Of a stretch of DNA of 64,000 nucleotides, positions 38,805 to 47,962 are shown piece after piece. Origin of the DNA: an uncultured Acidobacteriota bacterium (GTDB taxonomy: Bacteria > Acidobacteriota > Thermoanaerobaculia > UBA5066 > DATFVB01). Each line of letters begins with the position of its first letter. Positions within the stretch are counted from its first letter, which is position 1. Under the pieces are notes generated by a model that was given only the letters and a program-made list of their open reading frames with translations, was not told where the DNA came from and did no database searches. Location: positions 256,001 to 320,000 of the forward strand of contig CAWEYG010000003.1 in the NCBI GenBank assembly GCA_963813155.1. Direction: 5' to 3'. The position numbers were made by a program, and so were the translations under genes.

Positions 38805-39040
38805 CCAACCCCACCCCGACGCTGGACGCGCCACCCCTCCCCGCATTGCAAGGAGGGGAAAACACCGCAATGTCATTCCCGCGAAAGCGGGAATCGCCCG
38901 GCGCGGGCTCGACCTCACCCGGCCTCACGGCCACCCTCTCCATGTGGAGAGGGTAAATCGAGCATTCCCTTTAGTCGCGCCGAAGCCTTCCGACTTCGCC
39001 AAAGCGCTTCGTCGCGACGGCGAGTGGCGAAGGCGGATGT
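38805..39040. repeat. Cluster of REP-like GC-rich hairpins
   Basis: ATTCCC-GCGAAAGC-GGGAAT (38875-94), ACCCTCTCCATGTGGAGAGGGT, CCCTCCCCGCATTGCAAGGAGGGG and GCCTTC...GAAGGC. Confidence 0.55.
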
Positions 39041-39127
39041 CCCCTTTTTCCGTTTCCGCGATGAGCAGGGCGAGGGAGAACCTCGAAATGCAGGAAGGCG
39101 CAAGAAAGGCGTATACTCTACGAGCCA

Positions 39128-40120
39128 TGCCAGCGGCACCGATTCCTCCCCCGGCGCCCGGCCCGCGCCTGCTCGATCGCGTACGGGTTTGCGTACGTGC
39201 CCGCCACTATTCGATCCGCACCGAAGAGGCCTATGTTGGGTGGATCCGCCGATTCATCCTCTTCCACGGCAAGCGGCACCCGAGCGAGATGGGAGAGCCG
39301 GAAATCAACGCGTTTCTCTCGCACCTGGCGACGGCCAACAAGGTTTCGGCCTCGACCCAGACTCAGGCGCTCTCGGCGCTGTTGTTTCTGTACCGGGTGG
39401 TTCTCCTCAAACCCTTTCCCTCGATCGCCGACCTTATCCGCGCGAAGAAACCGAAACGTCTGCCAACCGTTCTCACCCGGGAGGAAGTCAGAGCCGTGCT
39501 TTCGCAGCTCGACGGTGTCCCGAAACTCGTGGCTGCCGTTCTCTATGGTTCGGGGCTTCGGCTTCTCGAAACCTTACGCCTTCGAGTGAAAGACATCGAT
39601 ACCGAAAGAAACCAGATCACCGTCCGTGACGGGAAGGGCCAGAAAGACCGTCTCACGATGCTGTCGGTTTCGGCCCGAGCAGGGCTCATCGAACATCTCG
39701 AGGGCGTTCGCCGCTTGCACCGCGAGGACCTCGGCCGGGGGGTTCGGAGCGGTTTTTCTCCCAGACGCTCTGGCTCGGAAATATCCCGGCTCCCCGAAGG
39801 AATGGGCCTGGCAATGGGTCTTTCCCGCGGATTCTCGTTCCGTTGATCCTCGGTCACAGGCGGTTGCCCGCCACCACGTTCATGAGCGCCTGATTCAGAG
39901 AGCCGTGAAGCAGGCCGTCCGAAAAGCAAAGATCTCGAAACCGGCAGCCTGCCATACTCTCAGACATTCATTCGCGACACACCTTCTGGAGGATGGCTAC
40001 GACATCCGGACCATCCAGGAGTTGCTTGGCCATAAGGACGTTTCAACCACGATGATCTACACCCATGTGCTCAACCGGAGCGGCGGACTGGGGGTGAGAA
40101 GTCCAATGGACAAGCTATGA
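39128..40120 (+). CDS. intI: Integron integrase (frameshift in the G-run near 39740)
   Basis: [40 protein letters not shown], integron-specific insertion [36 protein letters not shown] and [14 protein letters not shown]. Confidence 0.95.
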
Positions 40121-40281
40121 GCCCGTGTCGTTTTGACCGGTCGGGTTTTCGATCTTCGGCGACAAATCTCGTCGTGTTGATCGGTTCGTCAGGTGGCGAG
40201 GAAGTCGAGGGTCTAAAATGGGTTGGATGATAAAAGTGCCAGAAATGCAAATCGACTTAGGCGACAGATTTCGACGCGTTT

Positions 40282-40316
40282 GCCGAATCCTTTGGGACGC
40301 CGAATACATGTTCGCC
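40282..40316 (+). other. attI: attI site (crossover G40310|T40311)
   Basis: GCCGAAT-ACAT-GTTCGCC simple site with an upstream GCCGAAT direct repeat. GTTCGCCCACCC is complementary to the cassette 1 end GGGTGGGGCGAAC. Confidence 0.8.
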
Positions 40317-40326
40317 CACCCGAGCA

Positions 40327-40695
40327 ATGTTTAGGTCCATCGTCTTCCTCGGTCTGGTGGGGTTTATTGTCACGCCTGACGCCAGGGCTCTCCCTTCCGA
40401 CAAGATCACGGTTCCCGAACTGCTCGACCGGGTAGAGCCGCAGACGGTTCCACTGCCGAGTCCCCTCATTATTCGAAACCCGGAACTCAGGCTTCAGATA
40501 ACCGTCGACCCGACCGGCAAGGTCGACGACATCAAGGTGTTACGTTCCGTTCAACCTCGAGTTGATCGGGCCTGGGTGGCAGCGGTGAAACAGTGGCGGT
40601 ATAAGCCCGCGATGCGTAATGGGACGGCCATTCAGTACAAAATTAAACTCGTGACATGGGTCCACGCGGAACGATGGCCACGCGAAGCGAAGTAG
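40327..40695 (+). CDS. Cassette 1: secreted TonB C-terminal domain protein
   Basis: Signal peptide; ITVDPTGKVDDIKVLRS..DRAWVAAVKQWRYKPAMRNG. Confidence 0.75.
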   Translation: MFRSIVFLGLVGFIVTPDARALPSDKITVPELLDRVEPQTVPLPSPLIIRNPELRLQITVDPTGKVDDIKVLRSVQPRVDRAWVAAVKQWRYKPAMRNGTAIQYKIKLVTWVHAERWPREAK

Positions 40696-40705
40696 TGCGG
40701 GGTGG

Positions 40706-40766
40706 GGCGAACATCGGCGTGCAGCGGATGTCGCTTCGCTCCACCGCTGACGCCGGGTCGTTATGC
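40706..40766 (+). repeat. attC 1
   Basis: GGCGAAC...GGCGTGCAGCGG/CCGCTGACGCC...GTTATGC, extrahelical G. Confidence 0.9.
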
Positions 40767-40789
40767 CACCTAATCGGCGACGGGGGCAA

Positions 40790-41097
40790 ATGACGACGCG
40801 GGAGGATAACTTGCTTTCCGGCCGAGGGCGGTGGGCTCTTGGAGCGATCGCGATCTCCCTCGGGCAGGCTGCTTGGCTCTACAACACGGTCAAAACTGCA
40901 AACATTCTCAACGCGGCGCAGATACGGCCCATCTTGCTTCTTGGTCTAGTGGGCTGGTCTGTCGGCCTTGCCATGGGACTCGCGGGAATCCGAGTCGGCT
41001 CTCCGTCGCAAAACTCGTCTCAGCGCTCGGAATCATTGCAAACTTGGCCGGTGTCGCAGTCACGCTGTGGAAAATGGCGACCTGGTGGGTGGCCTAA
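40790..41097 (+). CDS. Cassette 2: small membrane protein (one frameshift)
   Basis: Three hydrophobic segments over two frames; TAA lies inside the attC inverse core. Confidence 0.6.
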
Positions 41098-41152
41098 CAT
41101 GCGCGTGCAGCGGATGTCGCTTCGCTCCACCGCTGACGCCGGGTCGTTAGGC
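41092..41152 (+). repeat. attC 2
   Basis: GCCTAAC...GTTAGGC, same internal palindrome. Confidence 0.9.
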
Positions 41153-41165
41153 CGCCGAGACTGAT

Positions 41166-41569
41166 ATGCCTTTGAGACCAAGGGATCTGGAGGCGCAGGG
41201 AATCCCGATCACGTTCGAACAGCCAGGCGAGGTGACCGTTCGCGTCGGCCCCTGCTCAGGGCAGAGATTAGAGCGCAAGAAGATCCCTTGGACGGCCGTC
41301 GCTACATCTGTGCTGGCACGATCTTCTTGAAGAACGGGTCGAAGCTTCAGGCAAACTTCGAAATCGAGACGCACAGCTTTGATTTCCTCGACCGCGAGAG
41401 CGTTCAGTGCCTCATCGGCGACGCTTGGTACGGAATCGACGAACCCGAGCTGTGGGCGGTACTCGGCATTTCCCAGAAGGATGGCTTGCCAGATTGCTGG
41501 TTGCCGGATGTCCCACTCGATTACCACGTCCCCGGCCCTTACCCGATGAACTGGAAGGGCAAGAAATGA
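41166..41569 (+). CDS. Cassette 3: hypothetical protein (one frameshift)
   Basis: MPLRPRDLEAQGIP... joins ORF 41288-41569. Confidence 0.55.
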
Positions 41570-41576
41570 CCCAGCG

Positions 41577-41637
41577 GCCTAACCCGCGCGTGCAGCGGAT
41601 GTCGCTACGCTCCACCGCTGACGCCGAACCGTTCGGC
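41577..41637 (+). repeat. attC 3
   Basis: GCCTAAC...GTTCGGC. Confidence 0.9.
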
Positions 41638-41654
41638 AACGTTAAGGAGCGTCG

Positions 41655-42030
41655 GTGGCTCAAGAAAAGCTGATCGTGCCCGATGATCGGCCACTGACGA
41701 GCGGTGAGCGTGAGTTGATCACGTGGCTGCTCGATCATGGGTCGGCGGAAGCGGCGGCATATCGCGGCCAGCTGTCGCGGGTTCATGTCGTTTCGAGGTG
41801 TGGGTGCGGCTGTCCGACCGTCGATCTCGCACTTGCCGGAAGCATCAAGCGGTCTGGATCGTCGGCGATCCTGGCCGACTTCACCGGCCGTTCACCAGAA
41901 GGCGTCCTAGTCGGCGTCATGCTTACTGGTCGCGAGGGCGAACTCTCGGAGCTTGAGGTTTATTCAAAGGATGGGGCAGGTCGCCACCTTCGGGGGGCTG
42001 CCCGTGCCGGTGGATCTGGAGTCGGCGTGA
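41655..42030 (+). CDS. Cassette 4: hypothetical protein with CGCGCP motif (DUF6984-like; 3' frameshift)
   Basis: AAGGAG RBS; RPLTSGERELI..RCGCGCPTVDL..GELSELEVY; probable stop TGA 42028-30. Confidence 0.6.
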
Positions 42031-42034
42031 CGTT

Positions 42035-42098
42035 GCCGAACATCGGCTTGCAGCGGACTGCGCCCTGCGGGCTTGCCGCTGAAGCCGGGTCGTTCGGT
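42035..42098 (+). repeat. attC 4
   Basis: GCCGAAC...GGCTTGCAGCGG/CCGCTGAAGCC...GTTCGGT (second attC type). Confidence 0.9.
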
Positions 42099-42103
42099 CG
42101 TCG

Positions 42104-42402
42104 ATGAGTCGCGATGACGGTCAGAAGTTCATCGATCGTTATGACGAGAAGCAGAGTCACAACCTCGACCCCGGATATTTCACGGGCGGTCGCCTGGAGC
42201 CGGTCTTCTTGGCGAGGAGGCCGAATAAATGGGGCTGGACGCTGCTCGTGGGCGGGTTCACGGCACTCGGGCGATCGTGTTGAATCGTGCAGATACGACC
42301 TGGTGGGAAAGTGGTCGTCGGCTCGTCGGCGTCGCTAGTCTCATGATCGTTGCGGGCGTCAAAGCGCGCCGGTGGCCGAATCGACGCGGAGGAAAACCGT
42401 GA
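42104..42402 (+). CDS. Cassette 5: small membrane protein (frameshifted; absent from the ORF track)
   Basis: MSRDDGQKFIDRYDEKQSHNLDPGYFTGG..WGWTLLVGG, then ..LVGVASLMIVAGVK..KP*. Confidence 0.5.
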
Positions 42403-42415
42403 GAAGGTCGAGACG

Positions 42416-42476
42416 ACCGAACATCGGCGTGCAGCGGATGTCGCTGCGCGCCACCGCTGACGCCGGGTCGTTAGGG
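42416..42476 (+). repeat. attC 5
   Basis: ACCGAAC...GTTAGGG. Confidence 0.9.
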
Positions 42477-42487
42477 AGACGGTAACC

Positions 42488-42902
42488 GTGAGAAGTTTCG
42501 TGAAGCCGCTTACCACCATTGTTCGTCGCCGTTGTCCTCACTTCCCTTTTCTGGAATTTGGCTTTCCGCCACGTTCCCGGGTCCATGGTGCTGTTTAACA
42601 TCGGCAGACTGGCCATCGCGGCGTGGGCAGGCTGGCGCGTTGTGTCACTCGGCTCGGGAAGTCTTTCCCAAGCCGCCCTATCCGGTGCGATCGTCTTCTT
42701 GATCGACCATGTGTTCTTGAAGGGTGGGTATTTTCTGGGCGAGGCCGTGCTTACTACCGGCGTCGACCGGCATAAGTACCTCCTCGCGTTCGGCGGCGTC
42801 TGCGTGTCCTATCTCATGTTTGTCGCAATCCCGGTCGGCCTCGCGGTTTGCGGAGGCTTAGCGGCCCGGTCGCGCAAGAGGGCAGAAGATGCGCCTGCCT
42901 AA
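42488..42902 (+). CDS. Cassette 6: four-TM membrane protein (likely 5' frameshift)
   Basis: ORF 42519-42902, hydrophobic; GTG 42488 has an AGGGAG RBS; TAA in the inverse core. Confidence 0.6.
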
Positions 42903-42957
42903 CATGCGCGTGCAGCGGACTTCGCTACGCTCGCCGCTGACGCGCAAGGCGTTGGGC
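42897..42957 (+). repeat. attC 6
   Basis: GCCTAAC..GCGCGTGCAGCGG/CCGCTGACGCGC..GTTGGGC. Confidence 0.9.
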
Positions 42958-42986
42958 AGCCAAAGTAAGGGTGGCGTGGAAAACAT

Positions 42987-43343
42987 ATGAAGTTGAGCAC
43001 TTCTAGGCACGTTCTTGTCGGCTCGGCTAGCCTTGTAGCACTCAGCACTGCAGTTCTGCCGTCGGTCACAGGATATGGGACCACGCTTTTCCAAATCGTT
43101 GTGCTTGGCGCCTGGTCGATTGTTGCACACCTATCCTCTGGAGCCTTCGCTGACCAACATCAGGGCCCGGTGTGGTTCGTCACGCTCATCCTTAATGTGG
43201 TGCTCTTTCTGGTCCCAGCATTGGCGGTCTATGTACCGGGACGAAAGCGTTTGCCGATGTTGACAGTGGTCGTTCTACTCTCTTGGCTGAGCTTCTACCT
43301 CGCATCGCTGTTCTTTCTCTCCCCGGCAACGGATGGACCATGA
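42987..43343 (+). CDS. Cassette 7: small membrane protein
   Basis: 118 aa, 3-4 hydrophobic segments. Confidence 0.65.
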   Translation: MKLSTSRHVLVGSASLVALSTAVLPSVTGYGTTLFQIVVLGAWSIVAHLSSGAFADQHQGPVWFVTLILNVVLFLVPALAVYVPGRKRLPMLTVVVLLSWLSFYLASLFFLSPATDGP

Positions 43344-43362
43344 TGGCAAGCGCGGCCGGGCT

Positions 43363-43426
43363 GCCCAACATCGGCTTGCAGCGGACTTCGGCCTGCGGCC
43401 TTGCCGCTGAAGCCGGGTCGTTGGGC
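43363..43426 (+). repeat. attC 7
   Basis: GCCCAAC...GTTGGGC. Confidence 0.9.
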
Positions 43427-43440
43427 GACGAGAAGCGGCG

Positions 43441-43756
43441 ATGACGGCACCTTCCATCTCGCGAGCTGTTGCCAAAGATGCTATCTGGGCTCGCCTCGGG
43501 CAGCTCCGAGTCGAGGTCTTATGACGATCTGCGGGACCTTGCTGATTCTAAGGAGAACCTCCGAGTCGACGGCGTTGACGCGACACTGTGCGTTTTCCGC
43601 GAGGCCCAGAAGGACGGCTCGATTTGGGTTATCGGGCAGCTCGCCACGCCATCACGACCTTTCCTCGTCGTATTCAGCAGCCGACAACTGTTCGCAGAAG
43701 GTCTTGAAGCGCGCTCTGACGGCTCTGTTCGCGTGCTAAGCGTAGAGGGAACTTGA
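43441..43756 (+). CDS. Cassette 8: hypothetical protein (frameshifted)
   Basis: MTAPSISRAVAKDAIWARL.. joins ORF 43469-43756. Confidence 0.5.
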
Positions 43757-43776
43757 TTACTTCACCGCAAGGCGTC

Positions 43777-43840
43777 GCCCAACATCGGCTTGCAGCGGAC
43801 TTCGGCCTGCGGCCTCGCCGCTGAAGCCGGGTCGTTCGCG
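43777..43840 (+). repeat. attC 8
   Basis: GCCCAAC...GTTCGCG. Confidence 0.9.
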
Positions 43841-43846
43841 CCCCGG

Positions 43847-44209
43847 ATGCAGGTCCTGCGCTCGATGGCGACGCCGGGTCTGGTCTTTCTACTTGTGGCT
43901 TCGCTGGCTTGCGTCAGTGATCAGCCATGCAGCACGCAATCGCCGAAGCCCATGAAGGCCGACTTTGAGGTGCCCCAGAACTTCTGGGATAAACATTCCG
44001 AGGGGAGCGTCACGCTTCGGGTCATCGTTGGGACCGATGGACGCATCACTTCGCCGGAGATTCTCCAGAGCAGCGGTCCAGACTATTCTGCGATCGCCCA
44101 GGAAAGCGTCTTGCGGTGGCAGTATCACCCAGTGATCTGCCGCGGTGCTCCCATTTCCTTCTATCTCACGGTGACGGTCAACTTCACAAAGAGTGGCAAG
44201 AGTGGATAG
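43847..44209 (+). CDS. Cassette 9: TonB C-terminal domain lipoprotein
   Basis: Lipobox-like SLAC; EGSVTLRVIVGTDGRITSPEILQSS..AQESVLRWQYHP..G.PI..TVTVNF. Confidence 0.8.
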   Translation: MQVLRSMATPGLVFLLVASLACVSDQPCSTQSPKPMKADFEVPQNFWDKHSEGSVTLRVIVGTDGRITSPEILQSSGPDYSAIAQESVLRWQYHPVICRGAPISFYLTVTVNFTKSGKSG

Positions 44210-44221
44210 CCGAGAGCGGGT

Positions 44222-44282
44222 CGCGAACACCGGCGTGCAGCGGATGTCGCTGCGCTCCACCGCTGACGCCGAATCGTTCGAC
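44222..44282 (+). repeat. attC 9
   Basis: CGCGAAC...GTTCGAC. Confidence 0.9.
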
Positions 44283-44300
44283 GGTCGAAGGGAGCCTAGG

Positions 44301-44717
44301 TTGGTGAACGCTGTTCTCGCCTTGGCAGCGGCGGCGATGTTCGGCACCTCGATTCTGCTCGCGCAGGGCGCGACGGGAGTGGGCGAGCCTCAGCCAGTCG
44401 AGATTCGTATTCCGGAATACCCGCTCTGGGCACGGAAGGCCCGTGTCCAAGTGACAATCGTCGTACGCGCCTCGATCGGTCCCGACGGCACCGTTAACCG
44501 TGCCCTCACGGTCAAAGACCCCTTTGCTAACCACAAACTCGACGATCTCCTGGAGGAATCGCTGAGTCGGTGGCGATTTCCCGCAGCTTCCGGACAAGCG
44601 GTTCGGGCTTCAGACATTACGTTTCATTTCGTCTTAGGCGACGAGACTCTCGTTAAGTACCTTCCACCAAACGAAGTCTTCATCGAGGCGACGATACCGC
44701 CCTTGGTGACTCGCTAG
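44301..44717 (+). CDS. Cassette 10: secreted TonB C-terminal domain protein
   Basis: Signal peptide; PEYPLWARKARVQ..IGPDGTV..SLSRWRF..ITFHF. Confidence 0.8.
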   Translation: MVNAVLALAAAAMFGTSILLAQGATGVGEPQPVEIRIPEYPLWARKARVQVTIVVRASIGPDGTVNRALTVKDPFANHKLDDLLEESLSRWRFPAASGQAVRASDITFHFVLGDETLVKYLPPNEVFIEATIPPLVTR

Positions 44718-44727
44718 CTATGCGACC

Positions 44728-44788
44728 GTCGAACATCGGCGTGCAGCGGATGTCGCTACGCGCCACCGCTGACGCCGGGTCGTTATGC
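44728..44788 (+). repeat. attC 10
   Basis: GTCGAAC...GTTATGC. Confidence 0.9.
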
Positions 44789-44802
44789 GACTCGAGACCG
44801 TC

Positions 44803-45231
44803 GTGAAGGGTCAACAATCGTTGCGCAATACGCTCGTGGTCGTGGGGGCATACTTCCTGGGGGCGCAGGTCGCCGTCCTGCTCTTCTGGCCGATGTCGCT
44901 ACTCATACCAACCTATTCTTCAGGGGAGGCAACCGCGGAGGCGAGGAAGATGGCGGTTATCGACGCCTTCTACCGTGTACCGATATTCATGGGAGCGGTT
45001 CTCGCAGGCGTCGGCGTCGGTGTGTGTCTTCAAAGTGCTCGGCCTCGGGTGTGGATCGTCGTAACCGGCGTGGTCGTCGCCCTCTGTACCCTATCCTCGG
45101 CTGCGTGGAGTCTTTTCCCTCTTGCCCAGGCGGTTCACCACTTCGAGCGCGCCGTGGCTGCTGGCTTGCTCTCATCGCTCGCATGCCTAATGACCCTCCG
45201 AAAGCGAAAGGCCGTGAATGCGACCGCATAA
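44803..45231 (+). CDS. Cassette 11: four-TM membrane protein
   Basis: ORF 44785-45231 with in-frame GTG at 44803; TAA in the inverse core. Confidence 0.65.
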   Translation: MKGQQSLRNTLVVVGAYFLGAQVAVLLFWPMSLLIPTYSSGEATAEARKMAVIDAFYRVPIFMGAVLAGVGVGVCLQSARPRVWIVVTGVVVALCTLSSAAWSLFPLAQAVHHFERAVAAGLLSSLACLMTLRKRKAVNATA

Positions 45232-45286
45232 CATGCGCGTGCAGCGGATGTCGCTACGCGCCACCGCTGACGCCGAATCGTTACGG
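45226..45286 (+). repeat. attC 11
   Basis: GCATAAC...GTTACGG. Confidence 0.9.
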
Positions 45287-45679
45287 CTTACCGTAACGAT
45301 TCTGCTCCGCGTCTGCGCTCTGGTGGTTGGGTTCCTAGCGGTTGTCTTTTTGCTGATGCCAGTTTACTTTCTGCGCTATGGGGCGGCGCCGATAGGAGAT
45401 GCAATCGCATCAGTAGGCGTTATCCTCTTGTCCCTCCTCTGTATGCGCTGTTTTCGATGGCTGTGGCGGCGCACTCGTTTTTGGACTGATTCACGATCAT
45501 TTAGTGAGGTCGCAGCACTAGCGGCAGCGATCGCTCTTTGGCCAGTCGCGATATATTTTGAGCGCAGAACGGTCGGAGTAGCAATAGATATCGTGCACAT
45601 GGTCGACGTTTCTGCTTATCGTCGGTGCTTACACCCTAGCTCGTCGTTGCTGGCACCAGAAGGCCAATCACAGTGCTGA
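45281..45679 (+). CDS. Cassette 12: membrane protein lacking an obvious own start codon
   Basis: Hydrophobic ORF open from the crossover TTA onward. Confidence 0.55.
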   Translation, partial: LRLTVTILLRVCALVVGFLAVVFLLMPVYFLRYGAAPIGDAIASVGVILLSLLCMRCFRWLWRRTRFWTDSRSFSEVAALAAAIALWPVAIYFERRTVGVAIDIVHMVDVSAYRRCLHPSSSLLAPEGQSQC

Positions 45680-45680
45680 G

Positions 45681-45756
45681 CCCTAACAACTGCGCCCAGC
45701 GGACTTCGGCCCGCGGCTTCGCCGCGGCCCTCGCCGCTGACGCTCATCCGTTAGGT
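45681..45756 (+). repeat. attC 12 (long type)
   Basis: CCCTAAC..CAGCGG..GGCCCGCGGCTTCGCCGCGGCCC..CCGCTG..GTTAGGT. Confidence 0.85.
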
Positions 45757-45766
45757 GCCAAGAAGT

Positions 45767-46114
45767 ATGGCATTCGCTGAGATCGAACTTGCTAAGTACC
45801 GGCGCACTCTCGACGCCTGGATCGAGAAGAATCGACCGCCCCCAGAAGTCCGGCCGAAGCTCGATTTCGGGTACCGCATCGCCGGGCAGAGTGTCGAACT
45901 CTTTGAAATTCGCTCGACCTTCGGCCGCCCCGGTGAGAAGCGCGAGAACCCCTTTGCCAAAGCGACGTGGAACAGGAGCCGTGGCGTCTGGCAAGTTTAT
46001 TGGCAGCGGGCGGATCTCAAATGGCATTCTTATCAACCGGTGAAGGCCGTAGGAACGCTGGATAAGTTTCTCCAGACGGTTCGCGAGGACAAATATGCAT
46101 GCTTTTTTGGCTAG
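45767..46114 (+). CDS. Cassette 13: DUF3024 domain protein
   Basis: RPPPEVRPKLDFGYRI..SVELFEIR..AKATW..WQVYWQRADLKWHSY..DKYACFFG. Confidence 0.85.
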   Translation: MAFAEIELAKYRRTLDAWIEKNRPPPEVRPKLDFGYRIAGQSVELFEIRSTFGRPGEKRENPFAKATWNRSRGVWQVYWQRADLKWHSYQPVKAVGTLDKFLQTVREDKYACFFG

Positions 46115-46126
46115 GCCCGGCGCGGC

Positions 46127-46187
46127 CCCTAACATCGGCGTCCAGCGGATGTCGCTGCGCGCCACCGCTGACGCCGGGTCGTTGGGG
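46127..46187 (+). repeat. attC 13
   Basis: CCCTAAC...GTTGGGG. Confidence 0.9.
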
Positions 46188-46195
46188 AGCCGAAG

Positions 46196-46762
46196 ATGAC
46201 GAATCGGTCGATCGCCGGTCTCGTTTTCAAGGTCTGGGGAATCATTTGGATCGTGTCGGCGGCATCATCGGTCGGCAGCGTAACGGCGCTCCTCATGGCC
46301 TCCTCGCCGCCCGGACCTGAGAATGTGATGATGCACTGGACCAAGATGTCTTACGTTTTCGGTACAGTGTCACTGCTGGCCGCCGGAATCGCTTTGTCGT
46401 GCTTTGCCAGTCGAATATCCCGCAGTCTTTTTCCGACGGAAGAGCCTGTCCACCTTGATTTCAGCGCGGCAGCGCTTCAAGCCGCTTTATTCGCCGTTCT
46501 CGGAATCCATTTTGCGATCCGTGCTCTTCCTGGGGTCGTCTCCATCGTTTACGTGCTTCGCACGAAGCCATCTTGGGACGCGCAGTCAGCCGCGTCGTAC
46601 GCGTGGGACCGCAAGCGCGAAGCGGTTCTCAGCTCCACCGTGGAGCTAATCGCGGGCGTAACGCTATTCTTCTCCAGCAACGCCCTGAGTAGCCTCTGGC
46701 GTCGGTTGCGCCCGCTCTCGGAAACCCCTCAGCCGGCCGATCCTCCCAAAGAGGCCGAATGA
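46196..46762 (+). CDS. Cassette 14: four-TM membrane protein
   Basis: 188 aa, hydrophobic, ends ..LSSLWRRLR... Confidence 0.7.
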   Translation: MTNRSIAGLVFKVWGIIWIVSAASSVGSVTALLMASSPPGPENVMMHWTKMSYVFGTVSLLAAGIALSCFASRISRSLFPTEEPVHLDFSAAALQAALFAVLGIHFAIRALPGVVSIVYVLRTKPSWDAQSAASYAWDRKREAVLSSTVELIAGVTLFFSSNALSSLWRRLRPLSETPQPADPPKEAE

Positions 46763-46772
46763 GATCGCGGCT

Positions 46773-46833
46773 CCCCAACACTGGCGTGCAGCGGATGGCA
46801 CTTCGCTCCATTGCTGACGCCGGGTCGTTAGGC
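46773..46833 (+). repeat. attC 14
   Basis: CCCCAAC...GTTAGGC. Confidence 0.9.
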
Positions 46834-46838
46834 GGCCG

Positions 46839-47243
46839 GTGAAACGCGGAGGTGGAAAGCTGGTGGGCCTGCTTCTCCTGCCCGCCATTGTCCTGATCGC
46901 CGATTTTGTTGTTCGACAGGTTTTTCATCCATACGGCGCCGCCCGAATTACGTTGAACGTTGTCCACGCAGCGGTTGTTGTCTGGGCAGGATTTCGAATG
47001 ACGAGATCCGGATTCAATATGTCGCAAGCCGCATGGGTCGGTGTAGGTCTTCTATTTTTTGATCTGGTCGTCGTCGCAGGGCCATTCTTCGCAATTAGGG
47101 GCCTGGCAGTTCCAGGTGGTTGGAGGTCAGCGCTAGGCGGCGGCGTGGTTGCTTCGGTGTTCGGTGCTCCCTTGGCAGCAGCACTGGCCGCCCTAGGTGG
47201 GCTCGCCGGGCGAAAATGGAGGCCTACCAGTGCGGCCGTCTAA
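46839..47243 (+). CDS. Cassette 15: four-TM membrane protein related to cassette 6
   Basis: WAGFRM..SQAAWVG..FD..GGLAGRK; TAA in the inverse core. Confidence 0.65.
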   Translation: MKRGGGKLVGLLLLPAIVLIADFVVRQVFHPYGAARITLNVVHAAVVVWAGFRMTRSGFNMSQAAWVGVGLLFFDLVVVAGPFFAIRGLAVPGGWRSALGGGVVASVFGAPLAAALAALGGLAGRKWRPTSAAV

Positions 47244-47301
47244 CATTGGCTTGCAGCGGACTTCGGCCTGCGGCCTTGCCGCTGAAGCCGGGTCGTTCGG
47301 C
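47238..47301 (+). repeat. attC 15
   Basis: GTCTAAC...GTTCGGC. Confidence 0.9.
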
Positions 47302-47317
47302 AACCCAATCTCCGTGA

Positions 47318-47624
47318 TCAGCTGCGGCGTCGCCAGTAGCCCGGGCGCCGCCTCGTGTGCGCGACGGCCCAGACGATCAGGTCGTCGCCTCGTCGCTCGA
47401 AATGGAGAACGTACGGGAAGCGGCTCAGCGGCACCTTGCGGAACGTCGTGGTCCTCGACCTTGGTCGGTGTTCCTGGGAGCATTCCGGAGGCAGCCTTAT
47501 CGACGTAGTCGTCGACCTCCGCCTGAAAATCCACACCGAGCCCCGGTCGGGCATTTTCGTAGCGTGTCGCGGCCGCGAGGTACTCGTCGCGAGCAGCCTC
47601 GTGAAATCGAACTCGCGCGCTCAA
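47318..47624 (-). CDS. Cassette 16: RelE/ParE family toxin (one frameshift)
   Basis: FHEAARDEY..YENARPGLGVDF....SRFPYVLHF..IVWAVAHTRRRPGYW. Confidence 0.85.
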
Positions 47625-47857
47625 CCGCGCTTCAGGGCTTTCGAAACTTCGGCCTTGACCGTCTTTCCATCGATCAGGAGCGCCTTATCGGCGTCGGACT
47701 CCCGCACCCGGCTCTCGACTTCGGCGTCCCAGGCAGCCTCAACGCCGGCGTCGGGCTCGCCGTCAAGGCTGGCGATCAGCTCAGAAGCCAGTTTCGCGCG
47801 GTCTTCCCTGGGCAACTTCAAGGCTGTGTCGAGCAGGGTTCCCGCGGATGGGCTCAT
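47621..47857 (-). CDS. Cassette 16: addiction module antitoxin
   Basis: ALKLPREDRAKLASELIASLD..VEAAWDAEVESR; stop overlaps the toxin start. Confidence 0.85.
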   Translation of the reverse strand: MSPSAGTLLDTALKLPREDRAKLASELIASLDGEPDAGVEAAWDAEVESRVRESDADKALLIDGKTVKAEVSKALKRG

Positions 47858-47886
47858 GACCCTCATTCTAACCCGGCGGGCGAGGT

Positions 47887-47962
47887 GCCGAACATCGGCT
47901 TGCAGCGGTCATTCGCTTTCGCCTTGCTTCGGTCGGCTGCCGCTGAAGCCGGATCGTTCGGG
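47887..47962 (+). repeat. attC 16 (long type, last in array)
   Basis: GCCGAAC..GGCTTGCAGCGG..CCGCTGAAGCC..GTTCGGG. Confidence 0.85.

Follow-up and report, generated by a model that had tools for sequence, protein, structure and literature searches.

Short open reading frames (ORFs) situated in the recombination sites of integrons can assist the translation of gene cassettes. According to a review (PMC8876359), ORF-11, ORF-17 and ORF-18 of the attI1 site of class 1 integrons are short ORFs led by a Shine-Dalgarno (SD) sequence that aid translation of the first cassette, and a short ORF in the cassette recombination site, attC, relieves the stem-loop of this site by termination-reinitiation, an observation credited there to Jacquier et al. 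(2009). In class 1 arrays, the longer the untranslated RNA, the lower the expression downstream, and extension of translation up to attC gave a 2-fold downstream gain, as reported in the parts compared of Carvalho et al. (2024; PMC11511950). Thus the class of mechanism is already known, short ORFs in both attI1 and attC having been published. Here, we analyze a chromosomal integron consisting of intI, attI and 16 attC sites (spanning 40710-47958) within a 64,000-nucleotide (nt) stretch of DNA, hereafter the window, from an uncultured soil bacterium of the Acidobacteriota (contig CAWEYG010000003.1, positions 256,001 to 320,000). Its attC sites are probably built into a translated frame, through which ribosomes would be relayed between cassettes in any order. 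This frame, called frame 0, is the one in which the AAC of the inverse core and the TTN following the crossover point G|TT are codons, and the ORFs running in it across the attC sites are called bridges.

In bacterial operons, genes are translationally coupled by 4-nt (ATGA) and 1-nt (TGATG or TAATG) overlaps. The same overlap types with the same -1 frame step are found at the cassette borders of the window, but the partner here is a non-genic ORF over a recombination site, the two halves of which come from different mobile units. Like attI1 of the ORF-11 type, the attI of the window has an SD-led ORF that crosses the crossover point and has its stop supplied by cassette 1. ORFs of this type are thought to hand ribosomes to a poorly initiating cassette, a role that the window ORF and its relatives would fit. 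In the passages of PMC8876359, ORF-11 ends at the TAG of GTTAG, corresponding to frame 1 here, and serves the first cassette only, whereas in the window an ATG lies on the crossover G so that ATG-TTN is read, and the same phase is kept at every attC. The bridges also resemble the described attC ORF, with a start in or just before attC, a frame open through the stem-loop and a stop near the next start. In class 1 integrons, such ORFs concern the attCs of individual resistance cassettes, whereas the feature found here is lineage-wide, being present in two families and in soil contigs, in sedentary chromosomal arrays. The system of Carvalho et al. (2024; PMC11511950) uses class 1 cassettes on a plasmid and is experimental, and bridging ORFs are not described in its passages compared. 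Fused gene cassettes are also known, and arise by loss of attC according to the passages of PMC8876359; in both cases an ORF continues into the next cassette, but the attC here is intact and read through. A literature search that covered few subscription journals found no description of phase-locked attCs in sedentary chromosomal arrays. Apparently new, as judged from the sequences, would be the lineage-wide restriction of attC length modulo 3, the phase-locked ATGA entry, the phased leaders, the ATG at the attI crossover and the in-frame donation of starts to ORFs for exported proteins.

Phase of the attC sites and their flanks

In the window itself, the preliminary description had claimed that frame 0 is open through all attCs, and this is the case at 16 of 16 sites; frames 1 and 2 are free of stops at 11 and 1 of the 16, frame 2 being closed because of the conserved GCTGA. 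Openness by itself says little, since a second frame is open at 11 sites and one consensus underlies all 16 as their common model. The phasing of the bridges is nevertheless far beyond chance, and the decisive evidence comes from related arrays. These were taken from three genomes of the window's own family (f1; G001, G004, G006), from four genomes of a second family of the same order (f3; G010, G014, G098, G024) and from two genomes of a third family (f2; G033, G019), in addition to 34 soil metagenome contigs with the same attC type, and the attCs were located by a covariance model. Loci L053, L058 and L065 were left out of the motif-phase counts and added at most two junctions to any other count.

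The length of attC from AAC to GTT is 2 mod 3 in 82 of 90 distinct sites of f1, 63 of 63 of the soil contigs and 96 of 101 of f3, and in 29 of 70 of f2. Frame 0 is stop-free in 86/90, 63/63 and 98/101 of these sites, respectively, and in 21/70 of those of f2. The phased sites fall into length classes of 47, 50, 53, 56, 59, 62, 68, 71, 86, 89 and 110 nt, and related cassettes lying behind attCs of unequal length (53/56, 53/59 and 62/59) keep the register. Besides frame 0, f1 sites have frame 1 open and f3 sites have frame 2 open, so that only frame 0 is common to both. The attCs of f2 (L006-L009 of G033 and L070 of G019) carry TAAC, an internal TGA and GTTAG, which puts a stop in every frame. 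This design is the opposite of that of the window, and f2 is without the phased features.

How would a ribosome get into frame 0? The phase of short motifs within 63 nt upstream of AAC, which does not depend on gene calls, was counted in 183 flanks of f1, 154 of f3 and 125 of f2. ATGA occurs in phases 0/1/2 at 59/10/6 in f1, 36/8/2 in f3 and 3/1/0 in f2, and GTGA at 40/14/7, 34/10/26 and 5/1/2, in the same order of families. The controls were CTGA (8/13/10, 20/11/10 and 6/3/2), TTGA (9/7/5, 8/9/3 and 3/3/0) and ATGT (12/10/7, 10/2/4 and 3/1/0). All three are flat in f1; in f3, CTGA (p = 0.11) and TTGA (p = 0.21) have no significant bias, and ATGT, in common with the remaining in-frame ATGs, is shifted toward phase 0 (p = 0.04). 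The bias at TGA is thus specific to those TGA stops that form ATG or GTG with the preceding base.

For tests involving genes, a cassette gene was called when the best frame spanned no less than 70% of the cassette length and the next best stayed below 55%, a rule that keeps 81 exit and 82 entry junctions of the f1 type, plus 14 and 14 of G033. Two other gene callers were given up: frame plots of the G+C content at third codon positions led nowhere, and a coding model based on hexamers, for which 1241 long genome ORFs served as the training set, found the right frame in 544 of 600 native fragments but was mostly negative on cassettes and was dropped. Among the 76 distinct f1-type gene stops called, 21 are ATGA stops (229 of 1990 genome-wide), and all 21 are in frame 0; a frame-0 ATGA stop is found in 20 of 69 protein clusters. 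In f3, 13 of 14 ATGA stops are in frame 0. A start overlaps 29 of the 37 frame-compatible upstream stops, 21 of these overlaps being ATGA. The distance from ATG to AAC ranges from 12 to 48 nt in steps of three in f1-type cassettes, with unrelated trailer sequences. It was also noticed at the outset that attCs starting with AAC-ATG follow genes ending on TAAC. This holds in the window (41099, 42904 and 45233) but not as a general rule, being true of only 1 of 13 called TAAC-ending genes outside this pattern, and the association is weak overall (10/64 vs 5/128).

The trailer distances also bear on an origin of the pattern in cassette genesis, whereby a module of trailer and attC containing the ATG would have been copied from a template and its phasing inherited rather than selected. 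The attCs of one lineage are very alike, with a few sequence classes dominating, as this would predict. A copied module does not account for three-nucleotide steps among unrelated trailers, for an ATG sharing bases with the stops of unrelated genes, or for a phased leader that belongs to the other cassette, and we regard this origin as very improbable.

On the exit side, 77 distinct f1-type junctions have an unambiguous downstream ORF. Frame 0 fuses with this ORF in 27, overlaps its first start exactly in 22 (20 as NTGA and 2 as stop-TG), stops 0-10 nt before the start in 10, overlaps by 2-30 nt in 9 and ends otherwise in 9. Frame 1, taken as a control, gives 3 fusions, 7 exact overlaps and 5 stops 0-10 nt before the start. 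Scored frame by frame in this way, juxtaposition is concentrated in frame 0, with 59 of 77 exits tight or fused as opposed to 15 of 77 in frame 1 (Fisher p ~1e-12). An exact overlap is found for 22 of 31 ORFs lying in the sole frame compatible with it, compared with 10 of 46 in equivalent control situations. Relative to G|TT, the downstream ORFs are distributed over the three frames as 34 / 7.7 / 28.3 when weighted by cluster. In f3, 30 junctions of G014 include 9 fusions, 9 exact overlaps and 4 adjacent stops, and 7 of G098 include 2 fusions and 4 exact overlaps.

Could chance acting on a conserved repeat give the same picture? Copies of one stop-poor, GC-rich consensus, common NTG and TGA and a free choice of gene ends might then suffice. 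Frame 1 is also open at most window attCs, some start codon overlaps 40% of ordinary genome stops, A is common at +4 of starts, and several gene ends in the window assume frameshifts, all of which would help such a coincidence. It should affect CTGA and TTGA as much as ATGA, however, and these are unphased in the very families in which ATGA is not; nor does it explain the unequal exits of frames 0 and 1, the absence of the feature from f2, or why, in two families whose attC sequences differ, each of some eleven length classes is 2 mod 3. Chance is thus an extremely improbable source of the phasing.

The attI site is set in the same phase. In the window, the attI leader ORF holds the conserved sequence ACATG|TT, and its stop (TAG 40332) overlaps the ATG of cassette 1 (40327) by 8 nt. 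Contigs from other soil samples, in which 40309 of attI is joined to 41146 (cassette 3) and to 46181 (cassette 14), confirm where the crossover lies. ACATG|TT or a close variant is present in the attI of 10 of 12 integrons examined. The G of this ATG is the crossover G, so that ATG-TTN is in frame 0, and the motif mostly lies inside an SD-led ORF of 20-40 codons; in G004, GGAGG precedes the ATG of this ORF by 5 nt. These ORFs end on the start of the first cassette (as ATGA or GTGA in five cases) or close by, except that in the second G004 integron the attI ORF is directly fused to a lipoprotein-like ORF. The complete genome G004 has two integrons (L010, at C1:3086-3093 kilobases (kb), and L003), the attI leader ORFs of which are almost identical; a lipoprotein-like cassette common to both follows attI in one integron and an attC in the other, and is in frame in each case.

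Proposed ribosome relay and other possible roles of the bridges

Only translation counts distance in triplets, and the data therefore suggest that selection has maintained a translated frame through attI and all attCs. The idea that both ends of a cassette hold half a bridge, and that the halves of neighboring cassettes meet in register at G|TT, is supported as an architecture by the attC lengths, the ATGA phase, the exits and attI. Since both halves are set relative to G|TT, any order of cassettes restores a complete bridge.

An outline of the process, which we consider likely though well short of certain, would be as follows: ribosomes load at the SD-led attI ORF and read across the attI crossover in frame 0. 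A ribosome that ends on a cassette gene restarts at the overlapping ATG or GTG, mostly that of an ATGA, and the length of the trailer together with the stop-free attC of 2 mod 3 would bring it to G|TT in a constant phase. On its way, it would melt the attC hairpin and thereby free the next leader and its SD sequence, and then re-initiate on the next gene or continue into the next ORF. In this manner, the polycistronic RNA would stay covered with ribosomes, and cassettes that are distal or poor in ribosome-binding sites would be expressed. The experiments on class 1 arrays, where expression depends on upstream translation, agree with this outline. Each hand-over involves a frame step of -1, from a gene in frame 1 to a bridge in frame 0 and on to a gene in frame 2, both ATGA and TGATG giving -1.

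The fused exits suggest a further function. The N-terminus of the downstream ORF is hydrophobic, resembling a signal peptide or a lipoprotein, in 26 of the 27 fusions and in 27 of the 50 other junctions. For 14 of these 27 fusions, the first ATG, GTG or TTG of the cassette comes only after the hydrophobic stretch has begun, in 9 cases by at least four residues, which suggests that such ORFs depend on a start codon lying before the boundary of their cassette. As read from the sequences, the bridge would be a donor of start codons as well as a relay, about one-third of the junctions being in-frame fusions into signal-peptide-like ORFs, many of which have no start codon themselves. Is this donation of start codon and leader the main role? 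Exported ORFs without a start of their own would then obtain an ATG and an N-terminal extension from the preceding site, the extension would be removed along with the signal peptide, and the exact overlaps would serve to dispose of the incoming ribosome where a cassette has its own start. Besides the hydrophobic fusions, the abutment of the attI ATG on the crossover, its fusion into a lipoprotein-like signal peptide in the second G004 integron and the rank of frame 0 as the commonest ORF frame (cluster-weighted 34/70) speak for this. Yet about two-thirds of the cassettes are not fused, many fusions have their own SD and start, and an extension of 20-35 residues before a signal peptide is unusual, so that we think it unlikely as the main role. 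Start donation complements the ribosome relay and does not exclude it. A bolder version, to which we would give somewhat less than an even chance, is that the integron acts as a platform for protein assembly, in which a large class of start-less cassettes for exported proteins take start and leader from the upstream recombination site, either the ATG on the attI crossover or the ATG, trailer and attC of the cassette before, and G|TT is an in-frame splice. The attC would then itself be a coding sequence under a frame constraint (2 mod 3 and no stops), a corollary that we advance with the same reserve. If this version holds, ribosomes loaded at one site in attI could be enough to translate a whole array, and the distal cassettes of large chromosomal integrons would not be silent.

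Translation of the bridges may also serve as ribosome cover only, shielding the RNA from RNases or Rho while downstream genes initiate alone. Good SD sites are present at many downstream starts, and in class 1 integrons untranslated length correlates with loss of both downstream expression and mRNA, as given in passages of PMC11511950. Cover would require neither stops placed exactly on the first start, as for 22 of 31 frame-2 ORFs, nor fusions into ORFs that lack a start, and as the sole role it is distinctly improbable.

Several points weigh against a relay of ribosomes along the array. Genes were called by ORF length alone, and 81 of about 190 f1-type junctions are unambiguous; related cassettes and genomes are not independent, and the positive families sampled are two. 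About half of the entry junctions and 18 of 77 exit junctions are without tight juxtaposition, and in the f3 genome G010, 12 of 18 ORFs are in frame 1 and exact overlaps are few. SD-like motifs are no commoner ahead of the bridge starts (5 of 27 by a strict definition) than at ATGA/GTGA stops of the genome (25%). Single-base indels in the assembly of the window leave several gene ends uncertain. In class 1 integrons, deletion of attC changed downstream expression little in most cassettes, according to the passages compared of PMC11511950; the hairpin therefore need not be a strong barrier.

What would a relay mean? Most distal cassettes of long chromosomal integrons are usually regarded as silent. 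If the relay operates, phased recombination sites would explain the expression of promoter-distal cassettes poor in ribosome-binding sites in at least one lineage, whatever their order. It would also show that attC is shaped by selection on translation besides recombination, which matters for attC models. Cassette annotation is concerned as well, because gene calling in these genomes probably misplaces starts and ends where cassettes meet. Both the length rule and the phase of ATGA can readily be scored in other integrons.

Bridges of the window

The features of the array are collected in Table 1. All entry starts named in the preliminary description are present in the sequence, in frame 0 and open to attC. 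Such a start lies at or near the upstream stop in 14 of 15 forward cassettes, and cassette 8, which has no start beside the upstream stop, is indeed the sole exception. The exits likewise stand as they had been described: frame 0 ends in an exact ATGA or GTGA seven times, 1-2 nt before the next start twice (bridges 2 and 5) and 14-19 nt inside the next ORF twice (bridges 3 and 12), and runs on in frame behind attC8, attC9 and attC11.

Table 1. Positions of the integrase gene, recombination sites, bridges and cassette genes mentioned in the text (numbered from the first letter of the window)
Feature	Coordinates	Strand	Remarks
intI	38944..40120	+	Tyrosine recombinase; two ORFs, 38944..39846 and 39626..40120, from a frameshift
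attI leader ORF	40218..40334	+	38 codons; GAGGG, 6 nt, ATG; reads across G 40310|TT 40311 in frame 0
Cassette 1 gene	40327..40695	+	TonB_C domain; stop TAG 40693
Bridge 1	40695..40793	+	32 codons; GTG on TAG (TAGTG); attC1; TGA 40791 overlaps ATG 40790
attC1	40710..40762	+
Bridge 2	41099..41164	+	21 codons; ATG after TAAC; attC2; TGA 41162, 1 nt before ATG 41166
attC2	41096..41148	+
Bridge 3	41566..41673	+	35 codons; ATGA on stop of cassette 3; attC3; stop 41671, 19 nt into ORF (GTG 41655)
attC3	41581..41633	+
Bridge 4	42027..42107	+	26 codons; GTGA start; attC4; ends ATGA 42104
attC4	42039..42094	+
Bridge 5	42399..42485	+	28 codons; GTGA start; attC5; TAA 42483, 2 nt before GTG 42488
attC5	42420..42472	+
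Bridge 6	42904..42990	+	28 codons; TAAC-ATG start; attC6; ends ATGA 42987
attC6	42901..42953	+
Bridge 7	43340..43444	+	34 codons; ATGA on stop of 42987..43343; attC7; ends ATGA 43441
attC7	43367..43422	+
attC8	43781..43836	+	Frame 0 open from 43757; fuses into TonB_C lipoprotein-like gene (ATG 43847..44209)
Bridge 9	44202..44717	+	GTG 44202; attC9; in-frame fusion to TonB_C gene of cassette 10
attC9	44226..44278	+
Bridge 10	44720..44806	+	28 codons; ATG 2 nt after TAG 44715; attC10; ends GTGA 44803
attC10	44732..44784	+
Bridge 11	45233..45679	+	TAAC-ATG start; attC11; in-frame fusion to membrane-protein-like ORF of cassette 12
attC11	45230..45282	+
Bridge 12	45673..45780	+	35 codons; GTG 45673; attC12 (68 nt); stop 45778, 14 nt into DUF3024 gene (ATG 45767)
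attC12	45685..45752	+
Bridge 13	46107..46199	+	30 codons from TTG 46107; in-frame ATG 46095; attC13; ends ATGA 46196
attC13	46131..46183	+
Bridge 14	46759..46842	+	27 codons; ATGA on stop of 46196..46762; attC14; ends GTGA 46839
attC14	46777..46829	+
Frame-0 ORF over attC15	47230..47508	+	GTG 47230; enters reverse toxin-antitoxin cassette; no + strand gene to couple
attC15	47242..47297	+
Cassette 16 ParE-like toxin	47318..47554	-	Weak ParE_toxin match
Cassette 16 antitoxin	47621..47866	-	Pfam Unstab_antitox, E 2e-11
attC16	47891..47958	+	68 nt; final attC of array

The bridges that are not fused (11 of 15) are 21-35 codons long. This steady length might hint at functional small proteins, but the peptide sequence is set by the DNA of attC and differs between f1 and f3, and its end varies with the pair of cassettes, leaving this an almost negligible prospect. 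The TonB_C gene of cassette 10, which receives a fusion, has its own SD and start (TTG 44301). Downstream of bridge 14, the protein of cassette 15 is conserved from 46836 onward in a relative. In the RNA folds of eight junctions of the window, the base of the hairpin pairs the R'' flank with the first bases of the next cassette; at attC13, the SD sequence of the next gene (GGGGAG) pairs with the R'' flank.

In cassette 4, the ORF (41655..42107) continues in frame 0 across the attC of this cassette as far as the ATGA at 42104, and a weak match to DUF6984 ends near residue 107 of its 150. It may be a true read-through protein or the result of another frameshift. Read-through ORFs make up 4 of 76 f1-type and 4 of 64 f3 called genes.

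Assembly, cassette orders and the integron

The caution, voiced from the beginning, that gene ends in the window rest on frameshift corrections proved justified for cassettes 2, 3, 4, 5, 6 and 8; the gene end upstream of bridge 2, for example, depends on a frameshift or read-through. The window differs from short-read soil contigs by single-base indels at 41287, 45612, 47442 and 38927, which suggests assembly errors of the homopolymer type, or else strain variants. An extra T after 41287 in a short-read soil contig merges 41166..41569 into one ORF and thus lends independent support to the frameshift correction of cassette 3. One contig is without a base at 45612, a loss that would make the gene of cassette 12 end on TAAC instead, and one base at 47442 is absent in three short-read contigs from three runs of two studies. 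Both ends of the DUF3024 gene (45767-46114) are fixed, as profile positions 3-112 of 112 align to its residues 5-115. A tblastn search with all window ORFs against the fetched arrays gave almost exclusively attC-encoded stretches, with real matches only for cassettes 1, 9, 15 and 16; the frameshifts of the window are therefore not settled by homology.

In addition to the attI joins mentioned above, soil contigs contain further rearranged joins exactly at G|TT, such as 42090|41630. The array therefore occurs in nature in several cassette orders. These joined forms are known from contigs, which show that they exist, not how they originated.

The locus has the features of an integron: an integrase beside the array, attCs that are bulged imperfect palindromes spaced by single-gene cassettes, and joins at G|TT. 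The first ORF of intI matches the Pfam families Phage_int_SAM_4 (E 1e-29) and Phage_integrase, and the second matches positions 95-169 of the Phage_integrase profile. The frameshift between them is near a G run at ~39740, a spot outside the cover of short-read contigs, and may be an assembly error or mark a real pseudogene. Homologues of intI adjoin the arrays of relatives on the array strand, and intI is on the cassette strand in the window and in all relatives checked. Whereas intI of class 1 integrons is divergent from the cassettes, that of the window is thus co-directional. A promoter scan of 39950-40400 found nothing.

The attCs of the window measure 53 nt (10 sites), 56 nt (4) or 68 nt (2) from AAC to GTT, all 16 lengths being 2 mod 3. 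AAC (R''), CAGCGG, GCTGA and GTT (R') are invariant in all 16, and the arms have a bulged base. The cassettes between them are ~330-600 nt long, with a median cassette length of 495 nt. Three TonB_C proteins and one DUF3024 protein are encoded in them, along with several small membrane-like ORFs and a reverse antitoxin/ParE pair. This last pair occupies the last full cassette, where the incoming frame-0 ORF enters for 92 codons and has no partner gene. Toxin-antitoxin cassettes in chromosomal integrons are usually reverse-oriented.

Of 151 genomes belonging to the same order, 97 have matches to the covariance model, which was built from the 16 attCs of the window. The genome containing the window has 32 sites by this model, some in clusters without an integrase. 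Sixteen of these attC-like sites are situated beyond the window, where no neighboring integrase was found, at C3:144.7 kb, 183.9-186.6 kb (-) and 583.1-587.6 kb (-), C2:497.4 kb and C1:552.6 kb, and several have degenerate R'' or R' boxes.

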